From positions 11,257-75,256 of the forward strand of contig CAKVHT010000002.1 in assembly GCA_934754375.1 (NCBI GenBank): a DNA stretch of 64,000 nt, read 5' to 3'. The position numbers were made by a program, and so were the translations under genes. This stretch comes from an uncultured Clostridia bacterium (GTDB lineage Bacteria; Bacillota; Clostridia; Christensenellales; UBA1242). Positions 4,548 to 30,731 of the stretch are shown here, one piece after another (within the stretch, counting starts at the first letter, position 1; every line of letters begins with the position of its first letter). The notes beneath the pieces are model-generated. The model did not search any database. It was not told where the DNA came from and was given only the letters and a program-made list of their open reading frames with translations.

Positions 4548-4611
4548 GTACAAATACATTAATACTTTTTCGCAAACAAAACCAAAAGTGAATGATAGCA
4601 CCACAAACAAT

Positions 4612-4639
4612 AAAAAAGAAAAGGAAGTTTAAAACTTCC
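4612..4639 (-). terminator. Rho-independent terminator of the giant gene
   Basis: GGAAGTT-TTA-AACTTCC hairpin (4623-4639) followed on the minus strand by TTTTCTTTTTT. It begins about 28 nt after the TAA at 4668. Confidence 0.75.
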
Positions 4640-4667: not shown

Positions 4668-7600
4668 TTATTGAATTGTGATTGAGCCACCTTCTCCATT
4701 TCTAGATTTCATAACAACTGTAACAGCTTCACTGAATTTTGTTGAGTATCCGCCATTTTGTTGCAATAGATAGAATGTTTCTCCAGTATTAAATAATTTT
4801 TCACTGTAAAACGAGAATTTTTGAGTCTCTATTAATGGATTAGAAATCAATGCGTCAACCATATCAATAAACGCATTTGAATTACCAAATGTTATGCCTG
4901 AAATTTTTCCAAACAATCCAGAATCAAACATATATCTAGTATAGAATTTTATATCACCACTTATATTACAATATTTGTTATCGTTTATTTGATGATTTTC
5001 ATCTTTAACTGTCAAGATAACTTCATGAATAGTTTCAACATCACAACCTTCTTCGGCAGATAGAGTATATTTGCTGTCAATCCTATACATCACATATTTT
5101 GTTGCATTGATTTTGCCTTCGTCGTTAAATCCTTTTGTATAGGTTCCATTAATATATTCATTGCCGCCTTTTACGTTTATGTCTATTTTAATATACCCGA
5201 TAGAATCCACCTTCAATCTGTAATAGTCACAAAAATTATATCCGTCATACTCTAGTTTCTTAAATTCGTCAATAGACATACCTTTAATTGTAGATTTGTA
5301 ATTTATATCCCCTGTCGATGTATTTACATCATAGATGTCAGCTAAAGTCATTTTAGTACCATTGTCAAATTCTATTTGATAATCTACCAAACCATCAGAG
5401 AAATAGAAAGTCTCTGTTTTTACATCAGGTATCTTCCATTTCTTGTTACCATTGGTTGTCTTACTCCTATAGTTTGAGGCATATATTTCTTGATTGAAAA
5501 CGGTCATAACTTTATTATCTGATGTCAACTCGTAACCACCTTCCCAAAGATAGTATGACACCTGATATTTTACAACACCTGGATGATTTGCATCTGTTTG
5601 ATACTCATAAGTTTCATTATCTTTTGCATTGCCTGTGAACATTGAACTATAAGGATTTTTGAAACTATAAGGGTAAATATCCATATCTATGTAACGTTTA
5701 TCGCTATAAGCGGAATTCACATCATCTAACCCATTTTGGTCATCTGCTATATAAGAAATTTCATAACACGCTTCTGGAATTTCTGTTATAGATTGTCTAT
5801 ACCTTGTTTGGTATTCAGTTGGCAAGATAATATAATTGTCACCATCGTAATAATAATTACCTGCATTGTTTTGAGTGTAAGTTCCGTCAGGATTTTGAAC
5901 ATATCTAGTTTGATAAATCAAATCCAAAACATAATACCCAGATCCGTTTTTATAGTAGTTTGCTGTTTGATCCTCAATGTACTCGACTTTTTCAAATGTC
6001 CTGATAACATAATCGACATTTATTGTTTTGCCAGTGGAGTCATAATTTTCATTATACACAAATCTAGCACGTTTACTTGGCATTTTGTTATTACCTGCGA
6101 CTGCATAATAAGCCCCTTCAAAATAATCATAACCCAAAATCAATTTTGATTTCTTTTCTGAAGATAAAGTTGATTTGCTGTAAGACAATGTTTCAGTAAC
6201 CACAGGAGCAATTGAAGAAGCATTATTTGTCAACTCTACACGATTGAGACTATATATACCATTTGAGTATTCAACTTTGTTGCCGTCATCTCTATTTGTT
6301 GCAAAACTATATGTTCCTGTTGATGGATTGTATTCGCCATAAACATAAGCATAGTTGTTGAATGTTACATAAGGCATTTCTACACCTAAATTATTCGCAT
6401 AATATGAAGATTCAATCATATTTGCCTGAATTTCAGTTGTTGTTGCTGTGAAACTATGTTTCCAATAATAACCTTCGCTATAAACACAAGTTCTTAAGAT
6501 ATCAGTTGAACTTATGTTGCTATCAGCTCCCCACTTGTCTTTTAATGTTTGAATTATTGTATCCTGTGAGGTGTCCATACTAAAGAATTCTACCGCGCCA
6601 TTAGTTTTATTGATAACCATCCAATAATTTGAGTAATAATCCAAAGGCCTTGAACTTGAATACAAATGATATGGTTGTCCATCAATAACCTTTACTTTGT
6701 CAGCAACCGCTTTTGTTTCGTTATCCTTATCCAAACTGATGTCTCGATAATACATGTTAGATAGGTATCCGACTTCACCCTCAAGGTTTTGGACAATTGT
6801 GCCTGTATTGTAATAGGTCATCATTTGTTCTTTTGCAATAACATTAACACCATAACCTATTGCGAATGTGATTAAAAGTTTCTTTATTACTGTTGTTTTA
6901 AGAAGATTTTTCAAAGCACCTTTCAAGAAAGCTTTTGCAAATTCTTTTGCCCCCATTTTTGCCCCAATTTTTGCTGTAGCTGCTAGTCCAGCGCCCGCAA
7001 CACCAGTAGTACCACCAGAAACAATAGAACCAAGCAACCCTATTACCATAGCAGCATCTGCTGCAACAAGAAGACTTTGCCAAATTGCAAGTTTTATTCG
7101 TGCAGCCTCATCTTGTTTTGTTGCCAAAATACCCTTATAGTCACTGCTTCCGAAACCATTAACCTCAAATATTGAACCAGATTCAGCCTGCTTAGACTCC
7201 TGATATTTAACTTTATACTCGAAATAAATTTCGTCATACAATTTTTTGGAACCATATTTTGGGTTCTCTTGATCTGTTATGCTTTCATCAAGATAATAGA
7301 AATTTTTAATTGTAATATAAGACTCATTATATCCCTGTTTAAATTTAGTATCCGGTTTCACAATATTGCCATTCTCATTATGGAAGATTTGTCCCCAACC
7401 AAATTTGGTATAGATTGTTGGAACATTTTCATAATCTTCATAAATAGTGTACAGAATTTGACCTTTTTCGTCCTTTGTATAGCCAGAGCCTTCTTCTGTT
7501 ACAGATTTAACAGCATTAATCTTGCTTGCGTCATAAATTGATGCAATAGAATCCCATTCTGCACCATTATTCTTTTCCATTGGAATAAATCTTTGCATTG

Positions 7601-10600
7601 ACTTAAATCCAGTGTAACTTATATGCCAACCTGGGTGTGTATAATATAATTTTCCATCTGAAGCCTTAATCTTATCGCTGTATAATGGATTGTGATCCAA
7701 ATTATTAGTATTTTGCGATGGTGAAATCTCAAATTTATCTTTGTTTACATATCTTGCAATAGCATAAATTGTAACAGTGTTGTTTGTGCTGTCAGTAACT
7801 GCTTTGTATGTAGCGCCACCGTTATCGTAGTTCTGATTTTCAATTGTGTTGATTGTAAATGCCTTGTTGTGTTTACCTTTAACTGTGATTGTTTCTCCAC
7901 TTGTTGAAGTTACTTTAAGCATACCAACAAGACCACCAACATTTGTTACTGCGTCGCCTGAGAATTTGACATTTGTTGCATCTACATTATAAGTTGTTTC
8001 ACTGCCAACGGTTGTTACACCATTCATGTTACCTTCGAGCCTACCAACCAAACCACCGATATAGTATGAATTACCTGTGAAAATTGTAATATTTTCGTTT
8101 GTCGTTAAAGCATTGATATTTTCAACCACCTTACCAAACACACCGCCAACATACATACCTGAACCTGTAGGTTGAACAGACACATTGAAGTTTGGTTTGT
8201 ATTCAAATTCAAAGTTTGATGTTTGGCTATCTGATTTAAAGCAACCAATTGCACCACCGATATTGTATGCACCACTAACTGAAGTTTCTGCATCAAGCAC
8301 TGGCAATTCAATATTTAATTTGTCACCAGAAATTACTCTATAATAACCATAATGCAAACCGACATTCACACCCAAAGGTGCATTAATTGTCACATTAATA
8401 TGGTTAGTTGAAATGCTTCGGTTATCTTCAGAGCCATACAATGCAGTTTTGGTGCTTGTTGTACCAATCAAACCACCAACACCAGATTTGATATCATTAA
8501 ATTGAACATTGCCTTTTTTAGATGCTTCATCACTCAAACTCAAATCAAGGAAATTGATTTCATTTTTTGCTGATGCTGTCACTTTTGCAAACATAAAGTT
8601 GCTAACTGTTGAAATCACATTTGAACCTTGGTTTTTAACACGTCCTTCATTAAAGCCGTAAGAATTAATGCTTGCAGTTTCGCCTTCATTCACTGTTTCA
8701 ATTTTAGCCTTCACTATGCTATCTTCAATCCTTACTGTGTTAGCTTCTGTTGAGCCAATCAAACCACCAATGCTTGTTGGAAGCACATAGTATGAATCAA
8801 GGATTTCTGTACCATCAAATCGTTCAACATTAATTAAATTGAAGAATAAAATACCTTTTACATTTGCTTTTTCGTTTGTTGCATCGCTGTTTAATACACT
8901 GTTGTTTGTGACAACCGCACCATTTGCAGTAAGTCCAACAAGACCACCAACATTTGTGTTGCCTCTGACATCAGCCAAAACATCAACACCCCTAATTTGA
9001 GCATTTTCTGCAAGATAACCAACCGCACCACCAACATTGATTGTGCCGATGATTTTGTATCCTCCAACCAAACTTGTGCCGTAGCAAATGCTATCTTCGG
9101 TTAAACTTTCATAATCAGTGATAAGTTCATATTTATTGATTGCTTCGTTGAAAGTGTAATACTTAACGTTTTCGCCAATGTAAAGATCTTTAACTGAATA
9201 ACTATTGAACCCAACAAAGCCAGTTGCATAACCAACCAAACCACCAACAGATTGATAACCTTTAATGTTTGCTTGGTTTTCACAGCCTATAACAAATGAG
9301 CCTGCACCAGACATACCTGCAATACCACCAACATTGATTGGTTTTGTGCTGATAGTTATGTCTTCTTTTTCTGTTTCCTTGCCTGTTGTAAAGGTGTTAT
9401 AAGTTAATTCGTTATCATTATTATCTCTTTCGTTATCAAACAGATCTTGAACAATGATATCTGCCTTATTGATTGCACCAACAATTCTTCCGTCTGTGTA
9501 ACCAACAATACCGCCTATGTTTTTAAACAAACCGCTTCCGTCTTTATATAGACCTCTATCAAAAGTGATTTTATTAAAGTTGATAAAGCCATTGATTTCG
9601 CAATTTGCGCTTGCTTTACCAATCAAACCGCCCCAGTTGCCACCGTTTGTGACAAGAGTTGTAGATTTGATTGTTGCAAATGAATTTTTGTCTGCACCAG
9701 TTCCATCTCCTAAACCAGACATGAAACTCCAACCATCAATTGATGTGCACTCAATTGGAGCATCAGCAAAACCAATTGCACCACCAACATTGTAACTCCC
9801 TTGCAATGTGATGTTCCTTGGTTTTGGTATACCAATTGTTCCGCCTTTATAATAACCTATCAATCCACCAATATTGAATGAACTGCCTGTAACAATCAAT
9901 GTTGGTTGGAAATATGTTAAAGCATCTTTTTCAACGGTGATTCCACCTTTATCTGTAGTTGATAAATTACCAACCAAACTGCCAAAGCCTTGTGTTGTTT
10001 CATTTACTTGTGCTGCAGTTGTTGCTTGAATGATTAATTGGCTTCTTAATTCCAATTTGCCATTGAAATTCAATTTGCCTGAGCCAGTTATTTTGCCTGC
10101 CAATAAACCAAAGAATCTATTGTCACCATTAACAAAAGCAATAACAATACTTTGATCTTCAATTGTACATTGATTGATAGTTATTGTGTTGTTTACCACA
10201 CCAACAAAACCGCCAAATTGATTTGCCATAAATGTGTCGTTTTCAAATTTTACATGGAAATTTGAAACTGCCACACCATTTGTTGATTCGCTTGCAACTT
10301 CGCCAATCAAACCACCAAATACATCATAACTTGCTGAAGTGATAAATAATGTTGTTTTACCTTTTGATTCAATTGTTCCGTTTTCAACACTACCAACCAA
10401 ACCACCTGTTGTGGTATGATCTTCGGTTGATGCAACACCATTATCAAACTCATTTGTAATATGAATTTCTTCATCATAGATTGAAATTGTGCCCGCAATC
10501 ATTTTTGATAAAACAAAGCCATAATTACCTGAATGTGTTGCAATCAATTTTGACATGCCAGAACTATATTGAGTTGTACCAATAGTGTCAACACCTTTAA

Positions 10601-16600: not shown

Positions 16601-19600
16601 CCAAACCACCAAATGTAATGCTTGTTTCAGCATTATTGTTTATCAAGATATTAACAACTTTTGTGCTTGAACTGCTTGCGTTTATCACATCGCAGTTGTA
16701 AATCAAGCCATTGTTTACCGCTGCCAAACCACCAAACACCACATTATTTAAGTTTTCATAAGCAAGCACCAATTGTCCATTTTGACTTGCATTGAATTGT
16801 GAATAATCCACAACCAAATTGTAAAGCAATGTATTTTCACTTACTGTTGCAAACAATCCGTAATATCCAGCATTTTCAGAAGCATCGTTTGACACAACAA
16901 AGTTTTTGATAATAATCTTTTTGTTGTTGCCATCCAAACTTGCAATAGCGGTTGAAATTGGTTTTGCAATTTCAACAACAATATCATTTGTAAGCACATA
17001 GTTTTGCCCTTCACCTAATATGCAATTGCCGTCAGCATCAAACATTTGGTCTGCCTGGCTGATTGCAAAAGCATCTTGGCGAGTTGTTGCTGTGTAGAAA
17101 TTCATATCAAAATTGATTGTCAAAACATGTGGCAACATTGTTGTGTCTTGACTGCCAAACACTAGTTTGCAAACCCCAGTTGTTTCGTCATAAGCATAAT
17201 TATAGTTTATTTTGAATTGCACTGAAGTTTTAAATTTGCCTTTTGCTTTTATGCGCAAATTTGTAATGGCTTCACTGCCTGAACCATAGTTTGTTGTGAA
17301 CACTTCAAAATAATCATTTTCAACATCAAAACTGCTTGTTATGCCAGAGTCATCAACTTTATATGTAAACATCGACATCAGTTTTTGGAACACTTTTGTT
17401 TTAAGTTGTTCTTCTGTCAGTGTTTGATTTTCCGCTGATGCCAAAATTTGATTTTTGATATTTGATAAAATGACGTTATAAATTTCATTTGAGAAATCTA
17501 TATTGTTATCATTTGTTGCAAAATCAAATGTCAAATCACGTGCTTGATTGATTGCCAAATTTAATGTTGAGCCAAAATCAAATGATGTGTTATCTTTGTT
17601 CAAGATATAATCAGTTGGGAAGAAATTGATTGAACTATCTTCTGTTTTGATTTCCGTGTTAGAAATCAAGCTCATACCAACCACAACTTTGAATGGTTTT
17701 GAAAGGCTGTTTCTCAATGCAAGTTGCAATCTCATTGAATATGAACCGTCTGAATTCGCTTTAAGTTCACTATATTTATCCAACCATTGATAATCAACAT
17801 CAAGGCCAAGAGAATTGCCTTTCAAATCAGTGATATTTACCACTGGGTTTGCATTAAATTGGTAGCCGTAAATTTTCAATGTTACGATATTATTTGTTGT
17901 GTTTTGTTGAATCAAATATCCTTGAGTATCTTCGCCATTAACCTTTGCTGTGATTTTGTAATCTTCATCATAAGACAAATCCACACCAGGCAAATAATCT
18001 GTTACCAAAGATTTTGTTTTAACAATATGAGTATCGTCAGCATTTGTAACATCTAATGTTAAGCGGATTTCATCAGCCAAACCACTAAACTTTTTATCCA
18101 ACACAACATGAACATATATTGTGCCATCAAATGTGTAACTTACCCCATCAGTTGTTGCACTGGCAAGTTCTAAATAAACTCCCATGCCGTCTTCAGTTTG
18201 TGCGCAACTTGGGCTGATGCTGATATACTTGCCAAGCCCAGTGTGATAAACAATTTGTTCAAATCTAATTTTTACTTTTTCGTTAAGGCTTGGGACATAA
18301 AGTTCACTGCTCTTCAAAGAAACCTGTTTTATATGCGCATAACTTGGTTGCATACGGACTGTCAACACCCCACCATTTCCACCTGGAGTAATGTTGGCTG
18401 TTTCAACTTGACTTGAAGTGATTAAGTAAGTGTAATTGCCCATTGCTTCAGCAGATGATGCTGCATAGTTGTTTATTACGACACTGCTTGAAAGTGTTGA
18501 AGGCCTTATTGTCAATTGAACAGTTGTTCCGCCGTCAATTGATGGGTTTGTTTTTGCGTATATTTTTATTGCAAAACTGATTTCACTTGTCAAATATCTG
18601 GTGTTGTAACTGTTTTTAAGTTGCATTGCGATGTTGTATGTGTAAGTTTTGTTAGTTTCATTAAAGTTGTTGAACACTTCAATATCAAACAATTCTGGTA
18701 TTGTTGTTTTGCCTGATTGTTTAAGCAATCTTGAATATTCATCAGTGCCGTCAATCACACTGAAATTCATAATCAAACTGTCATGGTTTTCTTCATCAAA
18801 TTCAACAATATTGTTTGTTGAAACCGGCTTTACAAATGCGTCAACTTCTGGATTTTCACTGTCAACATAACCAGTTGTCAAAGTTGCAGTAACAACATAA
18901 GATTCACTTGATTCACCTTCCAAATGATCAGTGCTAAATTCAAGAGCGGTTGCCGTTTCACTGATATTTACATTTATTTGTTTTGTTGCCAATGTTAAAT
19001 ATTGATCAACCCCGTCTTGTTGAGGATAAATTTCTGTGCCAAAGAATTTTGTTAAATTGAATTTGGTTGTGAATATTATTGTTTCAGTTTTTGTTCCACT
19101 GATTTCTGTATCTGTGCTGTTCAAAACAAATCTGTTAAACAAATTTGGATTTTTGCTGATTGTCAATACTGATGATTCAGCATCTTGAATTGTTGCCAAG
19201 ATTTCCACAAATTCACTTATGTTATCAACATCAAAAAGTGACTTATAGTTTGTTGAATCGTTTTGTCTTGTGTTGATTGTGTCAAGGTCAATTTCCAAGT
19301 TTTGCACACCTTTGTAAGTTGAAAGCTGATAGGTTGTGTTGCCTGTACCAACTGCTTGAAGGTTGTCCGCTTCAAGCACAATGTCGCTATACCAATTTTG
19401 TGTGTAAATCAAGAAATAGTCACAAGCATCTGGATTGAACAAAGAATATGCTTTAATCAAAATATAATCTTGATTTGATGTGCCTTTAAAATAAATTTCG
19501 TTGTTATTTACAATAGACGCATAATCTGCACCTTTAATTATCTTATACACAATTGCACCAATGGTGTTTAGGCTATTTGGCACTTTTGTCAAATTAACCA

Positions 19601-22600
19601 AATCATCAATTATATGTGTATTTAAATTAATATTATTAAGAGGATTATTGATATCATTATAGTAATTTACTATTGCAGTTTCTGTTATGCCATGTTTAAT
19701 GATATTGTTAAGTTCATCTTTTTTGTCTGTATCTTCGTTCTTTGTGTAATCGCCAACATAAAGAGAATTGATATCCTTGATTGTTTGTTGATTTAATATT
19801 GTTGTGATATCAGTTGGGATTAATGTAAAGTTGTCAACAAGATAAGGCAAATAGAAAACATATCCATTTACGGCAAGAGTGTTAAATGACTGTTCAACCT
19901 TCCACATCTCGCCAGAAACACCTGTTTCAAGTTGGTTTTGTTCGGTTGTTGAAAGCCTGTCAAAGTCAACAGGATTATCGTTCACAAACAATGTGCTGTC
20001 GTCATAAACAGCAGTATAAACACTGCCAGTTGTTGCAATACGATTGCCAGAAAATCTTCCAATAAAATAACAATTTTCAGCCGTTGAGTTTGAAATCAAA
20101 TAACTTGTCACACTGCTATCAGCAGCTATATTTGCATTTATGTAAGATGTTTCAAGTTGCACTGAACTTGCACTTTCACTCACGCACACCAAACCATAAA
20201 CTTGTTTTGCTGTCAAACTGCTAAATGTTTTGTCTTTTACATAATTTTCAACACTGCTTAAACTGATTGTTGCAGAATTTGCATTTGCAACCAAACCTGC
20301 AACCACACCCAAGTTGTTTGAAATAATGCCGTATGCTTTGTTTTCGTCCAATTTTATGCCAGCATCAATGCCGTCTTCAAGTTTAAAAGACATAAATTTG
20401 ACACTGGTTAAAGTTGTTGCTGTTGCTTCGCCAACTGCACCAGCCAATTTTAAGTTTTGACTGCTTGCTGTCAAATTAACACCTAACATAACAATATCTA
20501 CAATTGTTGTGCTTGCTGATTTACCAACCAAACCTGACAAATATCCTGTTGCTTTCAAGCCATTAACATTGATTTGCCCCATGGTTACAAAGCCTTTAAT
20601 CACAGCATTTGAAGCGGATTCGCCAGCAATGCCACCTATCAAGACATTATTTTCAACCCTATTAACCAATGTAACATCAAGATCTGCATTTGTAACAGCA
20701 ATATCCATACCCACATTGTAAGCAAGTTTTTCTAAGTCTGATGCTTGACGATAACTGCCAACAATTGAGCCTGTCAATCTGCCTGCAACAGCACCAAGAT
20801 ACAAATATTTGTTTGTTGCGTTAAAGGCTGTGTAAACTGCACCTTTTGTTGTAACTTTTGAATTTGCAAGGTTAAAATTGTTTGCCATTTCGCCAGCCAC
20901 ACCGCCAAGATACACATCTGTGGAAATACTATTGCGACTGAATGTTAAACCAGAAAAGTCGATTTCAAATTGAACATTACTGATTTTTACATTTGATTCG
21001 ATAACACCAGCCAAACCACCAATGTACAATGATTTACCACTGTCGGTTGAGGTTGGTTTTAAATAATCTTCAAACTGAATATTCAAGTTCAGGTCTGTGA
21101 TAGACGCATTGCCAGTCAATTTTGTGAACAAGCCATAATAAACGTTATCCGTTGCAGTTGAAGACCTGCTGATTGTGACTGTTAAATTACGTTTTGTTTC
21201 AACCACACCACCGACATCATTAAATTGCACATATTTACCTGATATTGAACCAGAAAAACTATCAAATGTTGTGTGATTTGTAACAACAATATCTTTTGTT
21301 AAAACATAGTGAGCATTTAAATTGTTTGCAATATTTCTAAAATCATCAGCTGATGAAATTTTATATCTTGCTTTTGTTGAGCCGTCAGTGATTGTTATAA
21401 ACACATCTCTAAAGTTGGTATATTTATTTGTTGATTCATCATAAGAATCAAGCGCAACCAAGCGCAATTTAAACATACCTCCACCCAATGATTTGTTTGC
21501 ACCAATTGAAACCAAACCTGTGAGTTTGGTGATTGTTATATTCAATCTATTTTCTGCTTTGCTCAATTCAACAGCGGTATATTGTTTATTGCCATCTAAA
21601 ATTGGATTACCGTCTTCATCTTGCAAGATTTCATACAAAATATAATCTAAATCATCGTATTTTGTTGCAACCAATTGATTGTAAACTACTGTTGCATTGA
21701 AATTTGATGTTGCCACACCACCATCTGCCACATTTAAGAATGACATATTGATGTTGATTGTATTGTTTTCGCTTGTAAGAGCTTCACCACTTAAAGCGAT
21801 ATCATCTGATTGCACATAACTGCCAAAGTTGATTGTAATGGCTTTGGAAACTGCCAACTCTGTGCCAAAACTTACTGCTGTAAGATTGATTGTTACAAAT
21901 TGTTGAGATGTTTCAGGTTTCTTGATAAGTTTTACTGTCAAATTGCCTGTCAATGCAGAAAGATAAATTCTGTTACCATGTTCATCGACCGCGGTGCCAT
22001 TATTGTCTAACAAGATTTCATCAGAACCCAAATATATCTTTATTGAACGATAATCACCTGTAACAGACAATTTTAATTTGTTGATATCTTCAACTATTTC
22101 TTCATTGCCATTTGCACCAAATTTAACCGATTGTGAAGGTGTTGCAATGAAACTTTTTGAATCAAATTTTATTGTAGAACTAGCAGCAGATTCATAATAT
22201 CTATTGATATAAACAATTTCATTGCTACTGCCAGATGCAAAGTTCATATCAATGCTACTTATGCTATTATAAACAGCAATTTCAAACTCTTTGGTTACAC
22301 TTGTTGTTGAAATTACACCATTTTCTTGAACATAATAAATGATTGTTGCTGTGAAATGAGTTGTTTTACTGCCCTGCACACCCCAAATTTGATATTTATT
22401 GACACTGCCAGTTTTGCCAAGTGCAAGATAATCAACTGCTGATGCGGAAAAATCTGTACTATCGTCTTTGCCTGACCTTACAAGTTCTACATTTGCAATT
22501 GAGAATTGGTTAAATAAGCCAGAAACCATTTGACCAAAATGCAATTCGCTCTTTAAATTGTAGTTATTTACGATTGCATATCTATCCAACGATGTTTCGC

Positions 22601-24704
22601 TTTCTGAACTTATTTTGAAGATGTTTTGACCTTCTGTTCTCATCACAAACTCATCAGTTGAAGCAACATATACACTTTGCACTGTAAAACTTGATTCAAA
22701 CAACGCAGTGTTGCCAGTTTTGCCTGCAAAAATCGTTACCAATGCAGTATCTTTTGCCTGTGTTGCTTTAAGAGGAATACAATATGTCTCATAATATTCA
22801 CCATTTGAACCCACTGCAGTTTTGAATGCAACTTGTGAGATGCCTGCACTTGTAATATCTTTTTTCAAGTTAATGCTGGTTGCACCATTTTTAAATGCAA
22901 ATCTTGATGTTGTAGGCAATGTTAAGTCAATTGTATCGGTTGCCAAACTATTGCCAGTATAATAAATGCGCAAATAGAAATTTGTTTCATTTTCAGCATT
23001 TGTTAAAATAGTTTTATCAACAAAATTTTCAATACCTGTTGATGATGTTAAAACTTCAAATCTGTTTGCGGTTACCACTTTTTTAACATCTAAAGTATAA
23101 GCATCTACATATCCAGCGGTAGAATCGTCAACCTTTTTGTAAGTGGTAAAACTGATTGATTCGCCGTCAGCTGATTCAATAGAATTTTGCTTGAATGTTA
23201 CATTGATGTTGGAGCCATTCATCACAGCCATAGTGTAGGTTTTGCCAGCGATTGTTTGTGCTTGGCTCAACTGCATAATGCTTCTACCTGTAACATTAAG
23301 GTTTGAGGTTGCTGAAATAAGCACCAAATGGCTTTCGTTATCGTTAGGTGCAACATCAACCAATAGATTTAAGCCGTTTTGCGAAACACTGCTGTTTGCC
23401 GTAACAAAAATCTTGCCTTCCTTATATGTGTCGTTTGTTTCGCCATTAAGTGTAATGTCTTTAATAATACTGCGTTTTGTGATATTTAAACTTGCAGAAT
23501 AAAGTTGTTCATCTATAACATAATCCAAACCAAGAACTTTAAGTTCAAATCTAATTGTGTTCCTTGGATAGGTTAAATAAGATTTTTCGTCTGCAGTTAT
23601 TTCATACATAAATGCTTTGTCTTTTTCTGTTTGTAAAGGTTGAATGCGTATGCCATTGTAATCAGCATAACTATCCATATCAACCAATTTTTCGTCAACA
23701 TAAACATTTAAACCGTATTTAGCGGTGTCTCCGTTTGCGGTTGTAACACCTTTTATGTATTTACTTTCAATTGTACCAATGCCAACATCAACAACCAATT
23801 TATATTCTTTATTTTCGCTGTCATCGTTTACATACAAGGTTTTTTGTTCAAGCTTTGTTGTTTTGCCAGTTTCACTTACAACTGGTGCATCAACATTTGA
23901 AAGTGATTCAATAACATACACATCAAACGTTGTGCTTTTTTCGTTTTCATTTTTGTAGAATTTTGAAGTGGCTTTAAGTTTAACAACAGGGTTTGTATTT
24001 GCATCAAAATTACTTTTAATTGTCAAACTGCCGTCTTTTGCAAGTTCAACATATTGAAGGGCTGATGCTGAATTGCGTGTTTCTTTCCATTGTCCATTGT
24101 CATAATATCCAAGCCCAACAATGCTAAAATCCACAGCTGTTTGGTTAGTTCCAACAGGTGAGAACAACAATGCACTTTGACTTTCATTAGCTGAAGAAAG
24201 GTTGTTCAAGTTTACAGTTTTGCCAACTACAAGTGCAGGTTTAAAATCTGTATTTGTTGTTATGGTTTGCAAACTTTCAAAGATGTTTAATTTTAAGCTT
24301 GTTTCTTTGCCAGATTTGGTTTCGTAAATGCGAATAGAAGATTGCATTGCACCTTGAACTTTGATTGTAAACACTTTGTCCTGCTTCACAATTTGAGATG
24401 ATGAAGAATTGCTGTCGTAGATAATCAAATCATCAATATATTTTGCCTTAACATTTTTGATATTGATTTTAAACACAAGGTTGCTTTGCTTGTTTTGAAT
24501 TACCAGCTTATCCTGACTGTCGCCAAAATTCAATGAAAGATTTTGACCAGCATCATACCATTGGCCAATCACTCCTTTGTCGTCAGCAAACGCATACTGA
24601 ACTGAAAATTCCATGTCCTTGTATCTGTTGCCACATGCAGACAAAAATCCGCAGGACAAAACCACGATAAGAACCATAAGCATATTTAAAAATCTTTTCT
24701 TCAT
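4668..24704 (-). CDS. Giant surface lipoprotein (6,678 aa) with multiple GLUG-like repeat cassettes, an embedded TM/glycine-zipper region and a Tyr/Asn-rich C-terminal domain
   Basis: Single uninterrupted ORF. SD AAGGTGAGGGG. Signal MKKRFLNMLMVLIVVLSCGFLSAC|GN (lipobox). More than 45 G-G-[LIV]-[VIA]-G type repeats such as YIGGLAG, NVGGLVG and NIGGLIG. Hydrophobic segments at nt ~6835-7092. Has its own promoter and terminator. Confidence 0.9.
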   Translation of the reverse strand: MKKRFLNMLMVLIVVLSCGFLSACGNRYKDMEFSVQYAFADDKGVIGQWYDAGQNLSLNFGDSQDKLVIQNKQSNLVFKINIKNVKAKYIDDLIIYDSNSSSSQIVKQDKVFTIKVQGAMQSSIRIYETKSGKETSLKLNIFESLQTITTNTDFKPALVVGKTVNLNNLSSANESQSALLFSPVGTNQTAVDFSIVGLGYYDNGQWKETRNSASALQYVELAKDGSLTIKSNFDANTNPVVKLKATSKFYKNENEKSTTFDVYVIESLSNVDAPVVSETGKTTKLEQKTLYVNDDSENKEYKLVVDVGIGTIESKYIKGVTTANGDTAKYGLNVYVDEKLVDMDSYADYNGIRIQPLQTEKDKAFMYEITADEKSYLTYPRNTIRFELKVLGLDYVIDEQLYSASLNITKRSIIKDITLNGETNDTYKEGKIFVTANSSVSQNGLNLLVDVAPNDNESHLVLISATSNLNVTGRSIMQLSQAQTIAGKTYTMAVMNGSNINVTFKQNSIESADGESISFTTYKKVDDSTAGYVDAYTLDVKKVVTANRFEVLTSSTGIENFVDKTILTNAENETNFYLRIYYTGNSLATDTIDLTLPTTSRFAFKNGATSINLKKDITSAGISQVAFKTAVGSNGEYYETYCIPLKATQAKDTALVTIFAGKTGNTALFESSFTVQSVYVASTDEFVMRTEGQNIFKISSESETSLDRYAIVNNYNLKSELHFGQMVSGLFNQFSIANVELVRSGKDDSTDFSASAVDYLALGKTGSVNKYQIWGVQGSKTTHFTATIIYYVQENGVISTTSVTKEFEIAVYNSISSIDMNFASGSSNEIVYINRYYESAASSTIKFDSKSFIATPSQSVKFGANGNEEIVEDINKLKLSVTGDYRSIKIYLGSDEILLDNNGTAVDEHGNRIYLSALTGNLTVKLIKKPETSQQFVTINLTAVSFGTELAVSKAITINFGSYVQSDDIALSGEALTSENNTININMSFLNVADGGVATSNFNATVVYNQLVATKYDDLDYILYEILQDEDGNPILDGNKQYTAVELSKAENRLNITITKLTGLVSIGANKSLGGGMFKLRLVALDSYDESTNKYTNFRDVFITITDGSTKARYKISSADDFRNIANNLNAHYVLTKDIVVTNHTTFDSFSGSISGKYVQFNDVGGVVETKRNLTVTISRSSTATDNVYYGLFTKLTGNASITDLNLNIQFEDYLKPTSTDSGKSLYIGGLAGVIESNVKISNVQFEIDFSGLTFSRNSISTDVYLGGVAGEMANNFNLANSKVTTKGAVYTAFNATNKYLYLGAVAGRLTGSIVGSYRQASDLEKLAYNVGMDIAVTNADLDVTLVNRVENNVLIGGIAGESASNAVIKGFVTMGQINVNGLKATGYLSGLVGKSASTTIVDIVMLGVNLTASSQNLKLAGAVGEATATTLTSVKFMSFKLEDGIDAGIKLDENKAYGIISNNLGVVAGLVANANSATISLSSVENYVKDKTFSSLTAKQVYGLVCVSESASSVQLETSYINANIAADSSVTSYLISNSTAENCYFIGRFSGNRIATTGSVYTAVYDDSTLFVNDNPVDFDRLSTTEQNQLETGVSGEMWKVEQSFNTLAVNGYVFYLPYLVDNFTLIPTDITTILNQQTIKDINSLYVGDYTKNEDTDKKDELNNIIKHGITETAIVNYYNDINNPLNNINLNTHIIDDLVNLTKVPNSLNTIGAIVYKIIKGADYASIVNNNEIYFKGTSNQDYILIKAYSLFNPDACDYFLIYTQNWYSDIVLEADNLQAVGTGNTTYQLSTYKGVQNLEIDLDTINTRQNDSTNYKSLFDVDNISEFVEILATIQDAESSVLTISKNPNLFNRFVLNSTDTEISGTKTETIIFTTKFNLTKFFGTEIYPQQDGVDQYLTLATKQINVNISETATALEFSTDHLEGESSESYVVTATLTTGYVDSENPEVDAFVKPVSTNNIVEFDEENHDSLIMNFSVIDGTDEYSRLLKQSGKTTIPELFDIEVFNNFNETNKTYTYNIAMQLKNSYNTRYLTSEISFAIKIYAKTNPSIDGGTTVQLTIRPSTLSSSVVINNYAASSAEAMGNYTYLITSSQVETANITPGGNGGVLTVRMQPSYAHIKQVSLKSSELYVPSLNEKVKIRFEQIVYHTGLGKYISISPSCAQTEDGMGVYLELASATTDGVSYTFDGTIYVHVVLDKKFSGLADEIRLTLDVTNADDTHIVKTKSLVTDYLPGVDLSYDEDYKITAKVNGEDTQGYLIQQNTTNNIVTLKIYGYQFNANPVVNITDLKGNSLGLDVDYQWLDKYSELKANSDGSYSMRLQLALRNSLSKPFKVVVGMSLISNTEIKTEDSSINFFPTDYILNKDNTSFDFGSTLNLAINQARDLTFDFATNDNNIDFSNEIYNVILSNIKNQILASAENQTLTEEQLKTKVFQKLMSMFTYKVDDSGITSSFDVENDYFEVFTTNYGSGSEAITNLRIKAKGKFKTSVQFKINYNYAYDETTGVCKLVFGSQDTTMLPHVLTINFDMNFYTATTRQDAFAISQADQMFDADGNCILGEGQNYVLTNDIVVEIAKPISTAIASLDGNNKKIIIKNFVVSNDASENAGYYGLFATVSENTLLYNLVVDYSQFNASQNGQLVLAYENLNNVVFGGLAAVNNGLIYNCDVINASSSSTKVVNILINNNAETSITFGGLVGVNNGTITNSRVGTSEFTKIIANDNSQTSYTEYFKPLNFVLGNRTLNQGQGFKSITGGFVGINSSNSAISSSYVANTSLYTYSTNSDSKLAGFVAENSGKISYSYVKGIETTITNENPFSTGAKIEAHADGNIAGFVYDNMSGANINNSFANIELVSKSAFMAGFVFRNNSGAKVSQCYSACTFANANSDTTLQITPEQPFVGADTTGSLSNGELENCYWYKDTNKQQFVVAETDGKPTATGLNATNFADTNNLVNFVFVLSNSKNDRDQGIWSFYDNRGNAVKLPELTIANNVAYSFRYESNNTDNADSTSKYTYATKFSLGSKNNPEIISSVQEFNDVFTNYGTSNNFAGYVRLIADIDFASDKAAIATRRQFTLGSKNNTNDTTYSSLDGNGMAINNIYLDVGEDKEEMVGLFAKINRAYIKNLNLHFSSGNFSTANSIYSGGLAGKITDSVIINISLDGVNTTIQGANMVGGLAGLIDGQSLIYGISSNLSVSTILSGTTELYSSTKNANSANNSYAQTVSYAGGIAGVIDVTTRSYSSGGEGYNLSYIYINDNAVDVNDNLKITADYAGGVAGYVGKSVKSVRVSFNVGSSNRIDGQYSAGGLYGASIGATMEASKVSALDTDEAQFKYDSTLAKYVLDMSKPLDKENIGNAGLIESYTYGGGLIGISVGSSIFSCYSKASFYAGKNIGGLIGVDVLSNNNFNYAVPFINFEGNMETVKTIGGLIGIAEDASSATFGQVYTNLGAKTGNSQNYTFSTILLENEAYKTFKQNLENQNITIDVKLNNFIGEDRVANHVISQVYVGEIAYSDLIVANSNIAGLTIKSMRNLYNLEVPEVQLSTYNSIFSIWDTKYWNLDTHSRYFPLLTDQRDENYEIIKDAQDFEKIKNNPTGSFKITDDVNMSNYKGGENFVFDFEFSGVLIGEKSDGSTPIVYNLNVKAPNNADAGLFRATSNATFRNIEFSWKKYGVGGEGNKVKIKNFAGFSGNDEKSKISAIMVTVGRINRTETDAVELFAHAGRDESVQYSSITGFAGLITTALGTNILNSSFSGQVSADIDLTNSTKTENFVGGLVGYGNTDIEDIENTMSIINSSVGTLQNTSFNFKVSGNKQLDVGLLAGALKMTAVSGNSIGSLTSSVVSKNIDLNIVLNNFTNSVSVSMYASGMIGVVEDCNVEDNVSFHTIKVSEQSGISNKNANLYLAGLVGKYLLSAEDTGRKIVNCDVSSNIISTVSSASSTTASAGIALVETVNNVYIEQCLFTGSISTVGNANVGGTIGYAYKSTGKTKINLDQIVSSVDISSKFGKLQSEETETAYIGGLVGRVDGSLILSNSINLGKITPSAEGNVNYYIGGLAGSTENVVLATGSYSFSLSSILANGLKGETITQVLPSANNTTTFRKMGALFGFINSTKVGQSSNYNMFVGEASTSNFYQTNADKNSLTSDLFYSTDMALQPEDTMLGTNLSAGTLINSMSYQTKVLESGVWSNTASNTSNVPYITSMRTSMRQFEIFENATDDYKSGLVANPKRVYTGSDQVMYYLVGDNFNIANTFTGIAVGNGNVIKTGNAFYINNLGDSSSSNGNSAISNIHIKYENFDVTRPLVNVNFGTIFNCSIIGSINSVANTSADGKGTGLIVNDNNGLISYCFNSADTTTQNQTGAIALNNNATIVSSYFTGSITVKNNSKYGYAFAENVSSDAYIYNCYSAGNIDKINFSSFVGVDLNNGGNNIIDKLATPSDAGIDQADLNKTNLTVSSTFDLMNATNLDGNWHTAISGKKLDLTDGSMFGYNYNYPIYDFNQYTSVIEGSLNKAFVTQYSRQTGRGLNNTDDWFEVPHLGVLNSIQGVIANDTGANRYYKITRKIDGGIYEQHNKVDTVNWYAVGVNDETLGFAASTNGFTGTIDAGYLDSANKVKSYSISNLSVNGLFTNIKNAVYNNIKFEGLFERMSGSGALGVEVNGTVLVTNVDVGDLTVSGTDVSILFGTMRAGSIQIGDFVDENTVKGVDTIGTTQYSSGMSKLIATHSGNYGFVLSKMIAGTISIYDEEIHITNEFDNGVASTEDHTTTGGLVGSVENGTIESKGKTTLFITSASYDVFGGLIGEVASESTNGVAVSNFHVKFENDTFMANQFGGFVGVVNNTITINQCTIEDQSIVIAFVNGDNRFFGLLAGKITGSGKLNFNGKLELRSQLIIQATTAAQVNETTQGFGSLVGNLSTTDKGGITVEKDALTYFQPTLIVTGSSFNIGGLIGYYKGGTIGIPKPRNITLQGSYNVGGAIGFADAPIECTSIDGWSFMSGLGDGTGADKNSFATIKSTTLVTNGGNWGGLIGKASANCEINGFINFNKITFDRGLYKDGSGLFKNIGGIVGYTDGRIVGAINKADIIVQDLFDNERDNNDNELTYNTFTTGKETEKEDITISTKPINVGGIAGMSGAGSFVIGCENQANIKGYQSVGGLVGYATGFVGFNSYSVKDLYIGENVKYYTFNEAINKYELITDYESLTEDSICYGTSLVGGYKIIGTINVGGAVGYLAENAQIRGVDVLADVRGNTNVGGLVGLTANGAVVTNNSVLNSDATNEKANVKGILFFNLINVERFDGTEILDSYYVLPTSIGGLIGSTEANTVRIEDSIVKAKIETVNEGETASINSYGFNEGRVKNQGSNVISTVSNFMFAKVTASAKNEINFLDLSLSDEASKKGNVQFNDIKSGVGGLIGTTSTKTALYGSEDNRSISTNHINVTINAPLGVNVGLHYGYYRVISGDKLNIELPVLDAETSVSGAYNIGGAIGCFKSDSQTSNFEFEYKPNFNVSVQPTGSGMYVGGVFGKVVENINALTTNENITIFTGNSYYIGGLVGRLEGNMNGVTTVGSETTYNVDATNVKFSGDAVTNVGGLVGMLKVTSTSGETITVKGKHNKAFTINTIENQNYDNGGATYKAVTDSTNNTVTIYAIARYVNKDKFEISPSQNTNNLDHNPLYSDKIKASDGKLYYTHPGWHISYTGFKSMQRFIPMEKNNGAEWDSIASIYDASKINAVKSVTEEGSGYTKDEKGQILYTIYEDYENVPTIYTKFGWGQIFHNENGNIVKPDTKFKQGYNESYITIKNFYYLDESITDQENPKYGSKKLYDEIYFEYKVKYQESKQAESGSIFEVNGFGSSDYKGILATKQDEAARIKLAIWQSLLVAADAAMVIGLLGSIVSGGTTGVAGAGLAATAKIGAKMGAKEFAKAFLKGALKNLLKTTVIKKLLITFAIGYGVNVIAKEQMMTYYNTGTIVQNLEGEVGYLSNMYYRDISLDKDNETKAVADKVKVIDGQPYHLYSSSRPLDYYSNYWMVINKTNGAVEFFSMDTSQDTIIQTLKDKWGADSNISSTDILRTCVYSEGYYWKHSFTATTTEIQANMIESSYYANNLGVEMPYVTFNNYAYVYGEYNPSTGTYSFATNRDDGNKVEYSNGIYSLNRVELTNNASSIAPVVTETLSYSKSTLSSEKKSKLILGYDYFEGAYYAVAGNNKMPSKRARFVYNENYDSTGKTINVDYVIRTFEKVEYIEDQTANYYKNGSGYYVLDLIYQTRYVQNPDGTYTQNNAGNYYYDGDNYIILPTEYQTRYRQSITEIPEACYEISYIADDQNGLDDVNSAYSDKRYIDMDIYPYSFKNPYSSMFTGNAKDNETYEYQTDANHPGVVKYQVSYYLWEGGYELTSDNKVMTVFNQEIYASNYRSKTTNGNKKWKIPDVKTETFYFSDGLVDYQIEFDNGTKMTLADIYDVNTSTGDINYKSTIKGMSIDEFKKLEYDGYNFCDYYRLKVDSIGYIKIDINVKGGNEYINGTYTKGFNDEGKINATKYVMYRIDSKYTLSAEEGCDVETIHEVILTVKDENHQINDNKYCNISGDIKFYTRYMFDSGLFGKISGITFGNSNAFIDMVDALISNPLIETQKFSFYSEKLFNTGETFYLLQQNGGYSTKFSEAVTVVMKSRNGEGGSITIQ

Positions 24705-24750
24705 AACCCCTCACCTTAATTTGCTCTAATTCTACATAATTATTAATTTT

Positions 24751-24780
24751 ATTATATAAAATTATATAGGGATAAGTCAA
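24751..24780 (-). promoter_or_regulatory. Sigma-A-type promoter of the giant gene
   Basis: The minus strand reads TTGACT (24775-24780), an 18-nt spacer, then TATAAT (24751-24756). This lies about 45 nt upstream of the ATG. Confidence 0.55.
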
Positions 24781-27477: not shown

Positions 27478-27507
27478 TAAAAAAAGGAATAGTTACAAAA
27501 CTATGCC
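27478..27507 (-). terminator. Rho-independent terminator ending the SipW operon
   Basis: The minus strand reads GGCATAGTT-TTGT-AACTATTCC (one mismatch) followed by TTTTTTT. The TAG stop of the 259-aa gene lies inside the stem. Confidence 0.7.
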
Positions 27508-28280: not shown

Positions 28281-28292
28281 AATCTCCCCTTT

Positions 28293-30047: not shown

Positions 30048-30054
30048 TGCTCTC

Positions 30055-30714: not shown

Positions 30715-30731
30715 GGCAATTCCTTTTATGA

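Follow-up and report, generated by a model that had tools for sequence, protein, structure and literature searches.

Closest described systems

The IgA1 protease IgA1P has a beta-helix as its N-terminal domain and is defined as an enzyme by its catalytic residues, H1604/E1605/H1608 (PMC7695701). The GLUG/M26 IgA1 proteases of S. pneumoniae and Gemella (6xjb, 7uvk) and BACOVA_03286 of B. ovatus (3n6z) have coils of the form G-G-[LIV]-x-G ... [ILV]-x-N in common with a giant protein encoded in the window, the 64,000-nucleotide stretch of DNA analysed here. The IgA1-protease domain and the giant protein also share the opening I-S-[ST]-x-x-[DEQ]-F ... Y-x-L-x-x-D-I ... F-x-G-x-[LF]-D-G and a predicted right-handed beta-helix, with homology at the profile level. 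Unlike the proteases, the giant protein lacks an M26 catalytic domain and G5, carries five beta-helix domains in series instead of one, reaches PF07581 and PF05342 only below threshold, and has a lipobox and a membrane hairpin as its putative anchors. An M26 protease was rejected, since there is no HExxH anywhere in its 6,678 aa and no Peptidase_M26_C match; LPXTG is likewise absent by motif search, as a preliminary description of the sequence had stated.

A second group comprises large GLUG exoproteins from other gut bacteria, such as the ~3,000-aa TPS proteins of Phascolarctobacterium with a filamentous hemagglutinin N-terminal domain, GLUG proteins sorted by T9SS in Bacteroidota and pilin-like ones in Lachnospiraceae. 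They share a GLUG-type domain of ~420 aa with the giant protein at 20-30% identity and are long surface or secreted fibres, as the giant protein is predicted to be. [quoted passage not shown]

Firmicutes are known to make giant fibrillar surface proteins that carry an export signal at the N-terminus and a membrane anchor at the C-terminus, an example being Ebh of Staphylococcus aureus. Ebh-type proteins resemble the giant protein in that a Sec signal precedes thousands of extracellular residues and the chain spans the membrane close to its C-terminal end, and the beta-solenoid of the L. reuteri SRRP binding region (5nxk) is among the structural neighbours of cassette 3 of the giant protein, but neither Ebh nor SRRP is known to be related to it in sequence beyond fold class. 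In contrast to the Ebh type, the giant protein would also be lipid-anchored at its N-terminus, has a hairpin instead of a single span, and probably has an extracellular tail. The giant proteins that Omnitrophota encode are 10,000-85,000 aa long and contain SecA-like domains besides numerous transmembrane segments (bioRxiv 10.1101/2023.11.21.568195). Common to them and to the protein described here are a very large gene in a small genome, predicted extracellular and beta-helix regions, and a proposed role in cell attachment; the latter protein, from a Firmicute, differs in having 6.7k aa, one lipobox, one hairpin and no SecA-like domain.

The host is a relative of Candidatus Onthoplasma (Christensenellales, family UBA1242). 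UBA1242/Onthoplasma genomes measure 0.76-0.92 Mb, are without most biosynthesis and standard transporters, and unexpectedly keep sporulation genes; their owners are widespread in the guts of humans, chickens, rabbits, sheep and cattle and were proposed to be obligate symbionts or parasites that obtain metabolites from other cells, through intercellular connections according to the same authors (PMC12306168). In chickens, UBA1242/Onthoplasma bacteria are negatively associated with body weight (PMC13155120). One of the related loci analysed here, L026, belongs to a MAG of PMC12306168. The giant gene takes up ~2% of a genome of <1 Mb. A length of 6.7k aa is not exceptional for bacteria in absolute terms, and it is the small genome that makes the size of the gene remarkable.

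An intact and conserved giant gene

The giant ORF occupies 4668..24704 of the minus strand, a strand that the preliminary description did not give, and runs, as reported there, uninterrupted through 6,678 codons to a single TAA at its end. At the 33.5% GC of the window ~7.4% of random codons would be stops, so that a frame of this length would stay open by chance with a probability of ~1e-222. Shine-Dalgarno sequence, lipobox, promoter and terminator were each recovered by sequence inspection or scans, in agreement with the earlier reading (Table 1). The -35, -10, 5'UTR and Shine-Dalgarno sequences are invariant in three species, whereas the remaining intergenic DNA has diverged. A terminator scan of the region returned three sites (a palindromic hairpin on both strands and one other) against 0.1 expected from shuffles. 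With a promoter and a terminator of its own, the gene, previously called monocistronic, is indeed a monocistronic-looking gene for a predicted exported lipoprotein. Simple-sequence repeats of the kind associated with phase variation are absent from within and upstream of it.

Table 1. Features of the giant gene and its neighbour u359 in window coordinates; aa positions refer to the giant protein.
Feature	Coordinates	Strand	Evidence or remark
u359, conserved lipoprotein (lipobox ...SFVGC)	3362..4441	-	own perfect extended -10 promoter at 4547-4520
Intrinsic terminator, hairpin GGAAGTTTTAAACTTCC then T-run	4623..4639	-	terminator scan
C-terminal Tyr-rich domain, aa 5979-6678, 11% Tyr	4671..6770	-	lineage-specific, fastest-evolving part of the protein
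Hydrophobic two-helix hairpin, aa 5852-5978	6771..7151	-	hydropathy; pattern kept in orthologues
Pre-hairpin block, aa 5628-5851	7152..7823	-	conservation profile, invariant columns
Cassette 6, aa 4535-5627, long GLUG-type coil run	7824..11102	-	about three domain-equivalents, ~17 coils
aa 4228-4534, formerly "cassette 5"	11103..12023	-	unsupported: hhalign to cassettes 1/3 E 0.33-0.38
Cassette 4, aa 3580-4227, GLUG-type	12024..13967	-	hhalign to cassette 1 = 1e-6; Glug 10.1 bits
Cassette 3, aa 3029-3579, best-defined GLUG-type beta-helix	13968..15620	-	Glug 15.9 bits, AF2, Foldseek
Cassette 2, aa 2544-3028, divergent GLUG-type, AGFV-type coils	15621..17075	-	opening motif
Middle spacer, aa 1591-2543, without recognisable domain	17076..19934	-	dN/dS 0.08-0.10
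Cassette 1, aa 1116-1590, GLUG-type beta-helix with opening cap motif	19935..21359	-	opening motif, profile
N-terminal region, aa 25-1115, without recognisable domain	21360..24632	-	68-81% identity to P0121
Signal peptide and lipobox, aa 1-24 (MKKRF...FLSAC)	24633..24704	-	translation; predicted lipidated residue Cys24
Shine-Dalgarno AAGGTGAGGGG	24707..24717	-	4 nt 5' of ATG at 24704; kept in L038 and L039
Promoter TTGACT-18-TATAAT, sigma-70/sigmaA-type	24751..24780	-	consensus scan, 11/12 matches

Giant repetitive genes often break or mis-join assemblies, and the preliminary description had raised the possibility of a chimera; a decaying pseudogene still open by chance is a related concern. 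In the nearest relative MAG the gene is indeed split over contigs of 5.8 kb and 14.8 kb, and in one relative (L002) an in-frame TAA splits it. However, two independent assemblies from separate runs carry collinear orthologues of 6,624 and 6,620 aa at the same locus, so that a length of ~6,600-6,700 aa is kept in three complete sequences, whose full-length alignment has no gap longer than 24 columns. In ~25 further MAG loci, from species-level genomes, the frame is open for at least 5,350-6,595 aa, up to the edge of the fetched DNA. Moreover, the internal repeats are too divergent to have caused mis-assembly, and dN/dS lies far below 1 over the whole gene (0.05-0.32), with 0.05-0.13 for aa 1275-4915 and 0.12-0.32 for the C-terminal 1,800 aa. 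Pervasive positive selection was not detected anywhere along the gene, as window-averaged dN/dS stays below 0.35 throughout. The giant gene is under purifying selection over its entire length and, taken with the chance of the open frame, an artefact is effectively refuted.

The window and both full-length orthologue contigs share the gene order sufC-sufBD-spoIIID-giant-u359-rplJ-rplL-comF, in which spoIIID lies divergently upstream of the giant gene; another gene lies between the two in L039. The window also encodes SpoIIE. Identity among orthologues declines along the protein: it is 70-87% in the N-terminal part but 28-50% towards the C-terminus.

Export signal and beta-helix cassettes

The protein begins with MKKRFLNMLMVLIVVLSCGFLSAC followed by GN, and its N-terminal layout is MKKRF-LNMLMVLIVVLSCGF-LSAC, with a hydrophobic segment at aa 3-27 and the lipobox L-S-A-C. 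Lipoproteins were recognised by a basic n-region, a hydrophobic h-region and a lipobox [LVI][ASTVI][GAS]C in the first ~35 residues, and all three features are present, making the protein a predicted signal peptidase II substrate. The two full-length orthologues, P0121 and P0124, both keep an FLTAC (L-T-A-C) lipobox. N+S+T+Y make up 34-36% of the body of the protein, compared with 23% in cytoplasmic proteins, and we infer that it is displayed on the cell surface.

Strict GG[LIV][VIA]G turns occur in 26 copies, against 0.18 expected by shuffling; relaxed coil patterns give 29-34 copies and a profile of the coil unit 35, so that the earlier count of more than 45 was too high. A clear opening motif stands at aa ~1116, 2549, 3031, 3580 and ~4560-4620, and profile-profile comparison (hhalign) links cassettes 1, 2, 3, 4 and 6 with E values of 1e-6 to 6e-4. 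Thus, five of the six cassettes first proposed stand, and "cassette 5" does not: its E of ~0.3 is like that of negative controls, and aa 4228-4534 contain no coil-profile matches. The cassette 3 profile matches cassette 1 at aa 1120-1544 (E 2.6e-22; hhalign between the two 1.3e-5) and cassette 6 at aa 4759-5073, 5079-5285 and 5311-5627, and the GG..G columns of cassette 6 are invariant in 25 orthologues. Cassette 2 is linked to cassette 1 at 9.3e-5, and the opening of cassette 4, as nowhere else in the protein, resembles Peptidase_M26_N below threshold (PF05342, 19.5 bits against a cutoff of 27.7). Self-BLAST for internal repeats found essentially nothing, so the cassettes are visible with profiles only.

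The GLUG and beta-solenoid reading of the preliminary description holds at the profile and fold level but not at the Pfam gathering threshold, since PF07581 (20.5 bits) was not reached by the best scores of 15.9, 10.1 and 9.8 bits in cassettes 3, 4 and 2. Pfam and NCBIfam searches with halves of the protein gave nothing at E<=0.01, and a PDB sequence search with the whole protein gave chance-level matches only. A profile of this region from 25 orthologues, by comparison, matched 941 proteins at E<=1e-3, many of them PF07581, PF05342 or TPS proteins, including a "GLUG motif-containing protein" at E 3.5e-27; for PF07581/PF05342 proteins, hundreds of matches had E values of 1e-15 to 1e-37. The cassette 3 profile aligned over ~400 aa with ~38 GLUG-type proteins, outlining a domain of ~420 aa. 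An AF2 model of cassette 3 (pTM 0.64, mean pLDDT 55, with residues 1-170 at pLDDT 70-88) resembles, at moderate confidence, the beta-helices of IgA1-protease type, which is the solenoid fold that structure prediction had been expected to reveal. Its top Foldseek matches were 3n6z (E 1.9e-4), 7uvk and 6xjb, and all remaining matches were right-handed beta-helices, including the L. reuteri SRRP adhesin, with low TM-scores of 0.19-0.26 to the beta-helix structures. These profile and model comparisons show homology of the cassettes to GLUG beta-helices.

The five domains in series are accompanied by ~2,000 aa of spacers without detectable repeats or known stalk domains. For the N-terminal region, Pfam, NCBIfam and PDB searches gave no match, the orthologue profile against the PDB was empty, and hhalign self-comparison found no internal repeats; for the middle spacer, the only Pfam match was at chance level, NCBIfam and the PDB yielded no relative, and hhalign against the cassettes was negative. 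Big families were not matched by Pfam even at E<=10. Ig-like stretches, which had been suggested for aa 26-1115 and 1590-2540, thus find no support in the Pfam, PDB-profile and repeat searches.

Predicted membrane hairpin, C-terminal module and u359

Within the C-terminal third, conservation is highest in the pre-hairpin block, which has the motifs H-x-YAFTINTIEN-x-NY ... GW..YTGFK..QR.IP ... WDSI..YDA ... SGSIF.V.G and no relative in Pfam or the PDB. Behind it, at 88% of the length of the protein, hydropathy places two hydrophobic segments (aa 5870-5957), close to where a transmembrane region had been read by eye, followed by a tail of ~700 aa. The order is helix 1, a G/A/S/T turn, a Lys-rich loop (net +6) and helix 2. 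Loop charge is +3 to +11 in 16 of the 25 orthologues; in the other nine, either a hydrophobic stretch of 45-60 residues contains a Pro/Gly turn, or the loop is basic and the second helix weaker. AF2 prediction of aa 5600-6678 from a 16-row MSA was uninterpretable (pLDDT 40, pTM 0.32), with two long helices at the hairpin at low confidence. The hairpin probably acts as a second anchor besides the lipobox, a putative two-anchor topology, deduced from hydropathy and charge rules, that the preliminary description missed.

Also missed was the nature of the C-terminal module, which is lineage-specific, fast-evolving and paired with a conserved adjoining lipoprotein. An exhaustive search of 1.84 billion protein representatives returned only 14 relatives of this module, which has 28-42% identity to P0121, dN/dS of 0.12-0.32 and a composition like that of exported sequence; Pfam, NCBIfam and the PDB yielded no relative for it. 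Divergence rises gradually towards an extreme C-terminus (...EGGSIxI) that is conserved and alignable in all orthologues; on this basis, and with no toxin or pretoxin domains found, assignment to polymorphic toxin/CDI systems was rejected.

The adjoining lipoprotein, u359, lies directly downstream of the giant gene in ~23 of 29 related loci, in most genomes in convergent orientation. Its lipobox Cys is invariant (24/24), and its identity is 34% where that of RplJ is 95%; u359 and the C-terminal end of the giant protein are the fastest-evolving parts of the locus. Pfam searches with each member, a PDB profile search and NCBIfam gave no match for u359, and profile comparison found no relation between it and the C-terminal module. 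The two may interact.

Discussion

Adhesion, or attachment to a partner, is the best-supported candidate function of the giant protein. We consider it somewhat probable (roughly 0.55) that this surface protein is the signature envelope protein of the genome-reduced UBA1242 lineage and its main attachment device. Its share of the genome, conservation, purifying selection and fast lineage-specific end make it the obvious candidate for the contact device, and such a role would explain why a genome of this size keeps so much of its length for one gene. The gene would be transcribed from its own housekeeping-type promoter. Sec would export the protein and signal peptidase II would cleave it, with Cys24 carrying the lipid anchor. 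Outside the cell, ~5,800 residues would then form a long fibre of mostly beta structure, in which five right-handed beta-helix domains of GLUG type are interspersed with beta-rich regions specific to the lineage. At aa ~5852-5978 the hairpin would re-enter the producer's own membrane with its Lys-rich loop in the cytoplasm, which would bring the last ~700 Tyr-rich residues back outside, beside the membrane, where they would probably work with u359. The fibre would bind a partner cell or a host-derived surface. The preliminary description had likewise proposed a lipid-anchored fibrillar adhesin; its adhesin part we infer, as no known adhesive, lectin or ligand-binding domain was found anywhere in the giant protein with Pfam, NCBIfam or the PDB.

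Were both ends anchored, the conserved middle and not the variable C-terminus would be farthest from the cell, which is unusual for an adhesin with a ligand-adapting tip and counts against attachment. The same two-anchor topology, suggested by the lipobox and the conserved hairpin, would suit a structural scaffold, in which a giant protein tethered at both ends lies along the cell surface as an S-layer-like coat, protective or shape-giving, with u359 and the C-terminal domain forming its membrane attachment. Strong purifying selection over most of the length, with the middle as the most conserved part, the conserved housekeeping-type promoter and the lack of an adhesive domain are all compatible with a coat. 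However, the coat and S-layer proteins known so far are abundant, assemble by themselves and have a far smaller size, coat or S-layer domains such as SLH were not found in the giant protein, and GLUG beta-helix modules otherwise occur in proteases, TPS exoproteins and fibres that are secreted or lie on the surface. Moreover, the rate at which u359 and the C-terminal end evolve is high, which better fits an interaction surface under external pressure, and we regard a coat as rather unlikely. A place on the spore surface or in the mother-cell membrane is extremely unlikely: the divergent spoIIID, present here and on both contigs with full-length orthologues, SpoIIE in the window and the retention of sporulation genes by UBA1242 (PMC12306168) point that way, but the conserved promoter is near-consensus sigmaA-type instead of a sporulation-sigma type, the spoIIID adjacency is part of a general gene order with suf and ribosomal genes that is interrupted in L039, and no similarity to coat or exosporium proteins was found.

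The proposed acquisition of metabolites via intercellular connections (PMC12306168) would also accommodate a contact-dependent delivery or membrane-insertion device, whose fibre holds out the C-terminal module to an adjacent cell and whose hairpin inserts in the target membrane in the manner of colicins, T3SS translocators or CDI, for nutrient extraction or effector delivery, with u359 as a protective, immunity-like partner. The hairpin is distant from the N-terminus and its lipid anchor; evolution is fastest in the C-terminal third and the next gene downstream, as in toxin/immunity pairs; TPS/filamentous-haemagglutinin proteins are among the relatives of the coil region; and there is a lone weak match to an SseC-type translocator (E 0.0035). 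However, that match occurs in only one of 25 orthologues, and a hairpin this hydrophobic should be caught by stop-transfer on its way through Sec and stay in the producer's own membrane. In addition, divergence is gradual up to the conserved extreme C-terminus, without the sharp boundary of swapped toxin cassettes; searches of the giant protein turned up no toxin, pretoxin, LXG, TPS or VENN-type module; and u359, an exported lipoprotein of ~350 aa whose gene is mostly convergent, is atypical for an immunity protein. Delivery therefore seems highly unlikely.

The giant protein also shows that a predicted lipoprotein-plus-hairpin chassis can carry GLUG-type beta-helix modules. Such giant genes come out fragmented in MAGs, and protein databases under-represent them. 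A more far-reaching proposal, which we regard as quite unlikely, is that the giant lipoprotein, its membrane-active hairpin, the Tyr-rich module and u359 together form an apparatus with which a Firmicute that depends obligately on a partner tethers or connects itself to another cell. If true, this apparatus would be the Sec/lipobox-based equivalent, so far unrecognised, of the organelles with which Patescibacteria and mycoplasmas attach, and its variable C-terminal end may set partner specificity or insert in the partner membrane for metabolite uptake.

A single intact gene at a conserved locus

The giant predicted lipoprotein is encoded on the minus strand by one uninterrupted frame ending in a single TAA. 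On that strand also lie the Shine-Dalgarno sequence, lipobox, promoter and hairpin terminator that the preliminary description had proposed; beyond the terminator, the next gene has a perfect promoter of its own. By our own calculation, the chance of an open frame this long is ~1e-222, with stops making up ~7.4% of random codons at 33.5% GC.

Coordinates of features in the window and, where a locus is named, in related genomes
Feature	Position	Strand	Details
Giant ORF	4668..24704	minus	6,678 codons, single terminal TAA
Giant Shine-Dalgarno	4 nt before ATG	minus	AAGGTGAGGGG
Giant N-terminus			MKKRFLNMLMVLIVVLSCGFLSAC|GN; lipobox L-S-A-C
Giant promoter	24780-24751	minus	TTGACT-18-TATAAT
Giant terminator	4639-4623	minus	hairpin + T-run
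Ribosomal protein L10 leader	3077-3215	minus	RF00557, 54.5 bits; upstream of rplJ-rplL, directly after u359
SpoIIID gene	25140-25442	plus	PF12116, 88.8 bits; divergent from giant
Exported-protein cluster	27501-33764	minus	u611, u219, u791 and TM protein u259
Second giant lipoprotein (predicted)	33773-42811	minus	3,012 aa; N-terminus MKKKSLIICLLVAVFSLLFAGC|EQK
SpoIIE gene	55399-57690	minus	
In-frame TAA in giant orthologue	L002 6705-6719		ORFs of 2,234+ and 2,171 aa; ATG 9 nt after the stop
Longer giant orthologue	L018 2-19786		sheep rectum MAG
Longer giant orthologue	L029 2-17533		
GLUG/M26_N-like protein	L001 15580-18792		
GLUG/M26_N-like protein	L038 31214-33778		
GLUG/M26_N-like protein	L002 14804-19171		

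When 1.84 billion representative proteins were searched exhaustively with HMMER, only 14 relatives of aa 5600-6678 emerged, two of them full-length orthologues (P0121, 6,624 aa; P0124, 6,620 aa). Both open with a conserved lipobox (...FLTAC) and can be aligned with the window protein over its whole length, the longest gap spanning no more than 24 columns; the three complete sequences measure 6,620-6,678 aa. P0121 and P0124 lie on contigs from separate sequencing runs, and both contigs share the gene order of the window, sufC-sufBD-spoIIID(divergent)-giant-u359-rplJ-rplL-comF, where u359 is another lipoprotein gene. Scanning one genome per GTDB species gave 35 giant-related loci; ~25 of them had the whole 10 kb of upstream flank, and there the frame runs on without a stop to the limit of the retrieved DNA (at least 5,350-6,595 aa). 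The -35, -10, 5'UTR and Shine-Dalgarno sequence are invariant across three species, while the remaining intergenic sequence has diverged. Compared with Ca. Onthoplasma sp. CM_BacOnt1327.26, the closest relative (two fragments, 98% and 89% amino acid identity), dN/dS is 0.05-0.13 over aa 1275-4915 and 0.12-0.32 over the last 1,800 aa. Because of the full-length orthologues, the open frames in relatives, the low dN/dS and the invariant upstream signals, the giant is a real gene, and a pseudogene is excluded; an assembly chimera, a concern raised at the outset, is likewise excluded by collinear orthologues at the same locus in independent runs, leaving a negligible chance of artefact. The L10 leader beside u359 confirms an ordinary chromosomal, non-mobile context.

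Several observations concern variation within the family. One orthologue (L002) is broken by a single in-frame TAA inside homologous sequence, the sole such case among ~30 loci; a nonsense allele, an error in sequencing and a true split of the gene are all conceivable. Downstream of the conserved-match start, L018 and L029 are ~1,200 and ~440 aa longer than the window protein, their 5' ends falling outside the fetched DNA, and some family members may thus exceed 7,000 aa. In CM_BacOnt1327.26 the gene is broken over 5.8-kb and 14.8-kb contigs (L003, L006), and a search of a 5.8-billion-cluster protein database returned no orthologue >2,952 aa; assemblies break up the giant genes of this family, and protein catalogues contain too few of them. 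Along the gene, synonymous divergence from the same relative spans a 25-fold range, with dS 0.02 at aa 2475-2774 and 0.50 at aa 6374-6673, which suggests a recombination mosaic within it.

GLUG-type beta-helix cassettes

The strict GG[LIV][VIA]G turn occurs 26 times in the giant versus 0.18 expected; relaxed patterns give 29-34 copies and a profile of the repeat unit 35 coils, so the motif reported earlier is real and very strongly enriched, but its count of more than 45 was too high. Of the six cassettes originally delineated, 1, 2, 3, 4 and 6 are linked by profile-profile tests (E 1e-6 to 6e-4), whereas the proposed fifth, like the negative controls, did not match them. Formal family assignment fell short: searches against Pfam and NCBIfam returned nothing at E<=0.01, Glug (PF07581) reached only 9.8-15.9 bits in the tiled protein versus a threshold of 20.5, and Peptidase_M26_N at the start of cassette 4 scored 19.5 bits against a cutoff of 27.7. 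When a profile was built from the final ~2,200 aa of 25 orthologues, it retrieved 941 proteins, many annotated as GLUG, M26_N or TPS/filamentous-haemagglutinin (E 1e-15 to 1e-37), and a profile grown from cassette 3 aligned over ~400 aa with ~38 proteins of the GLUG, M26_N and TPS types and matched cassette 1 at E 2.6e-22. The AF2 model of cassette 3 (pTM 0.64; pLDDT 70-88 over the first 170 residues) is a regular series of short strands. Its top Foldseek match is a putative IgA1 protease of B. ovatus (3n6z, E 1.9e-4), followed by IgA1 proteases of Gemella and pneumococcus and then exclusively by right-handed beta-helices, among them the SRRP adhesin of L. reuteri, all at low TM-scores; the N-terminal domain of IgA1P is itself a beta-helix (PMC7695701). 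The cassettes are homologous to GLUG/IgA1-protease-type beta-helices by profile and fold, although the giant stays below the formal Pfam threshold. It is clearly not an M26-family protease, since it has no HExxH and, in agreement with the preliminary description, no LPXTG. For the N-terminal (aa 25-1115) and middle (aa 1591-2543) regions, which the preliminary description read as Ig-like, even orthologue profiles brought up no relative in Pfam or PDB, and internal repeats were likewise absent.

A putative membrane hairpin and a fast-evolving end

The best-conserved stretch in the C-terminal third (aa ~5610-5850), which has no known relative, precedes a hydrophobic region of two segments (aa 5870-5903 and 5939-5957). 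The loop between them carries a net charge of +3 to +11 in 16 of 25 orthologues; the remaining nine show one of two patterns, a hydrophobic stretch of 45-60 residues that includes a Pro/Gly turn, or a basic loop with a weaker second helix. The region fits a putative two-helix hairpin in all 25, an arrangement in which the domains before and after it would share one side of the membrane. The last ~700 aa contain 11% Tyr, and the N+S+T+Y content of this C-terminal domain (36%) matches that of the exported body (34%), unlike that of cytoplasmic proteins (23%); AF2 modelled the region at pLDDT 40.

The giant is 70-87% identical to P0121 in its first ~3,700 aa but only 28-50% in its final ~2,000 aa, and P0124 shows the same gradient. 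Between the window and the P0121 genome, the giant (62%) and above all u359 (34%) are less conserved than RplJ (95%), RplL (86%), SufBD (84%), SufC (81%), SpoIIID (79%) and ComF (73%). The u359 product is a predicted lipoprotein, its lipobox Cys invariant in 24/24 orthologues, and its gene lies directly downstream of the giant in ~23/29 loci; it has no known domain and no relationship to the giant's C-terminal domain. A polymorphic-toxin architecture was rejected because divergence rises gradually and the extreme C-terminus is conserved.

Neighbouring surface and sporulation genes

Genes for surface proteins, namely both giants and an exported-protein cluster, occupy ~35 kb of the 64-kb window. 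The cluster is unannotatable; after the hydrophobic core, the N-termini of u611, u219 and u791 end in ...GAWFTD, ...AYFTA and ...AAFSW, and an adjoining signal peptidase scores above the archaeal/SipW-type model cutoff (TIGR02228, 53.1 bits versus 51.85). The arrangement resembles a TasA/camelysin-like fibre operon dependent on SipW. The second giant has no Pfam match, and its C-terminus (aa ~2616-2972) is a GLUG-type cassette resembling cassette 4. In L001, L038 and L002, further GLUG/M26_N-like proteins of 1,069-1,456+ aa lie a few genes beyond comF/recD2, indicating that the lineage possesses a modest set of paralogous surface proteins with beta-helices. The divergent SpoIIID arrangement is conserved in L038 and L039, and SpoIIID and SpoIIE together indicate that sporulation genes are retained in a lineage with genomes <1 Mb, as reported previously (PMC12306168).

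Proposed function and host lifestyle

We favor, with a probability of about 0.55, a lipid-anchored extracellular GLUG-type fibre with the membrane hairpin as second anchor and attachment as its function. The protein would be exported by Sec and lipid-anchored at Cys24; ~5,800 residues would form the fibre, with five GLUG-type beta-helix domains and lineage-specific beta-rich regions between them, working like other long beta-helical surface fibres. The hairpin would enter the producer's own membrane, keeping the Tyr-rich domain outside the cell and close to the membrane, probably alongside u359.

An envelope or coat scaffold is possible but rather unlikely. We regard as improbable a device for contact-dependent membrane insertion or delivery. 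In its favor are the distal position of the hairpin, the rapid evolution of the C-terminal end and its partner gene, and a single weak SseC-like match; against it are the lack of toxin modules and the stop-transfer expected of Sec. Still more doubtful is a sporulation-linked protein: adjacency to spoIIID is conserved, but the giant's promoter is sigmaA-like.

We found no description in the searchable literature of a protein that combines a lipobox at the N-terminus with five GLUG domains in series, a conserved block ahead of a membrane hairpin, the hairpin itself, a Tyr-rich domain restricted to the lineage and a co-conserved lipoprotein partner, at 6,620-6,678 aa in three complete sequences and in ~35 species-level genomes <1 Mb. 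Size alone is unremarkable, since bacterial proteins >30,000 aa exist (bioRxiv 10.1101/2023.11.21.568195).

All giant-related loci come from uncultured gut MAGs (human, rabbit, chicken and sheep) labelled Ca. Onthoplasma, uncultured Clostridia or Christensenellaceae, one of them (L026) from a study of Onthoplasma (PMC12306168). Onthoplasma (Christensenellales family UBA1242) has genomes of 0.76-0.92 Mb that lack amino acid, nucleotide and lipid biosynthesis, complete glycolysis, ATP synthase and standard transporters yet still keep sporulation genes, and the authors of that study proposed an obligate symbiotic or parasitic lifestyle on metabolites from other cells (PMC12306168). In genomes of this size, the 20-kb gene takes up ~2%. 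Given this cost and the proposed dependence on partners, the best-supported function of the giant is attachment, either to a partner cell or to a surface of the host; this function, surface display and the topology outlined here are all inferred.
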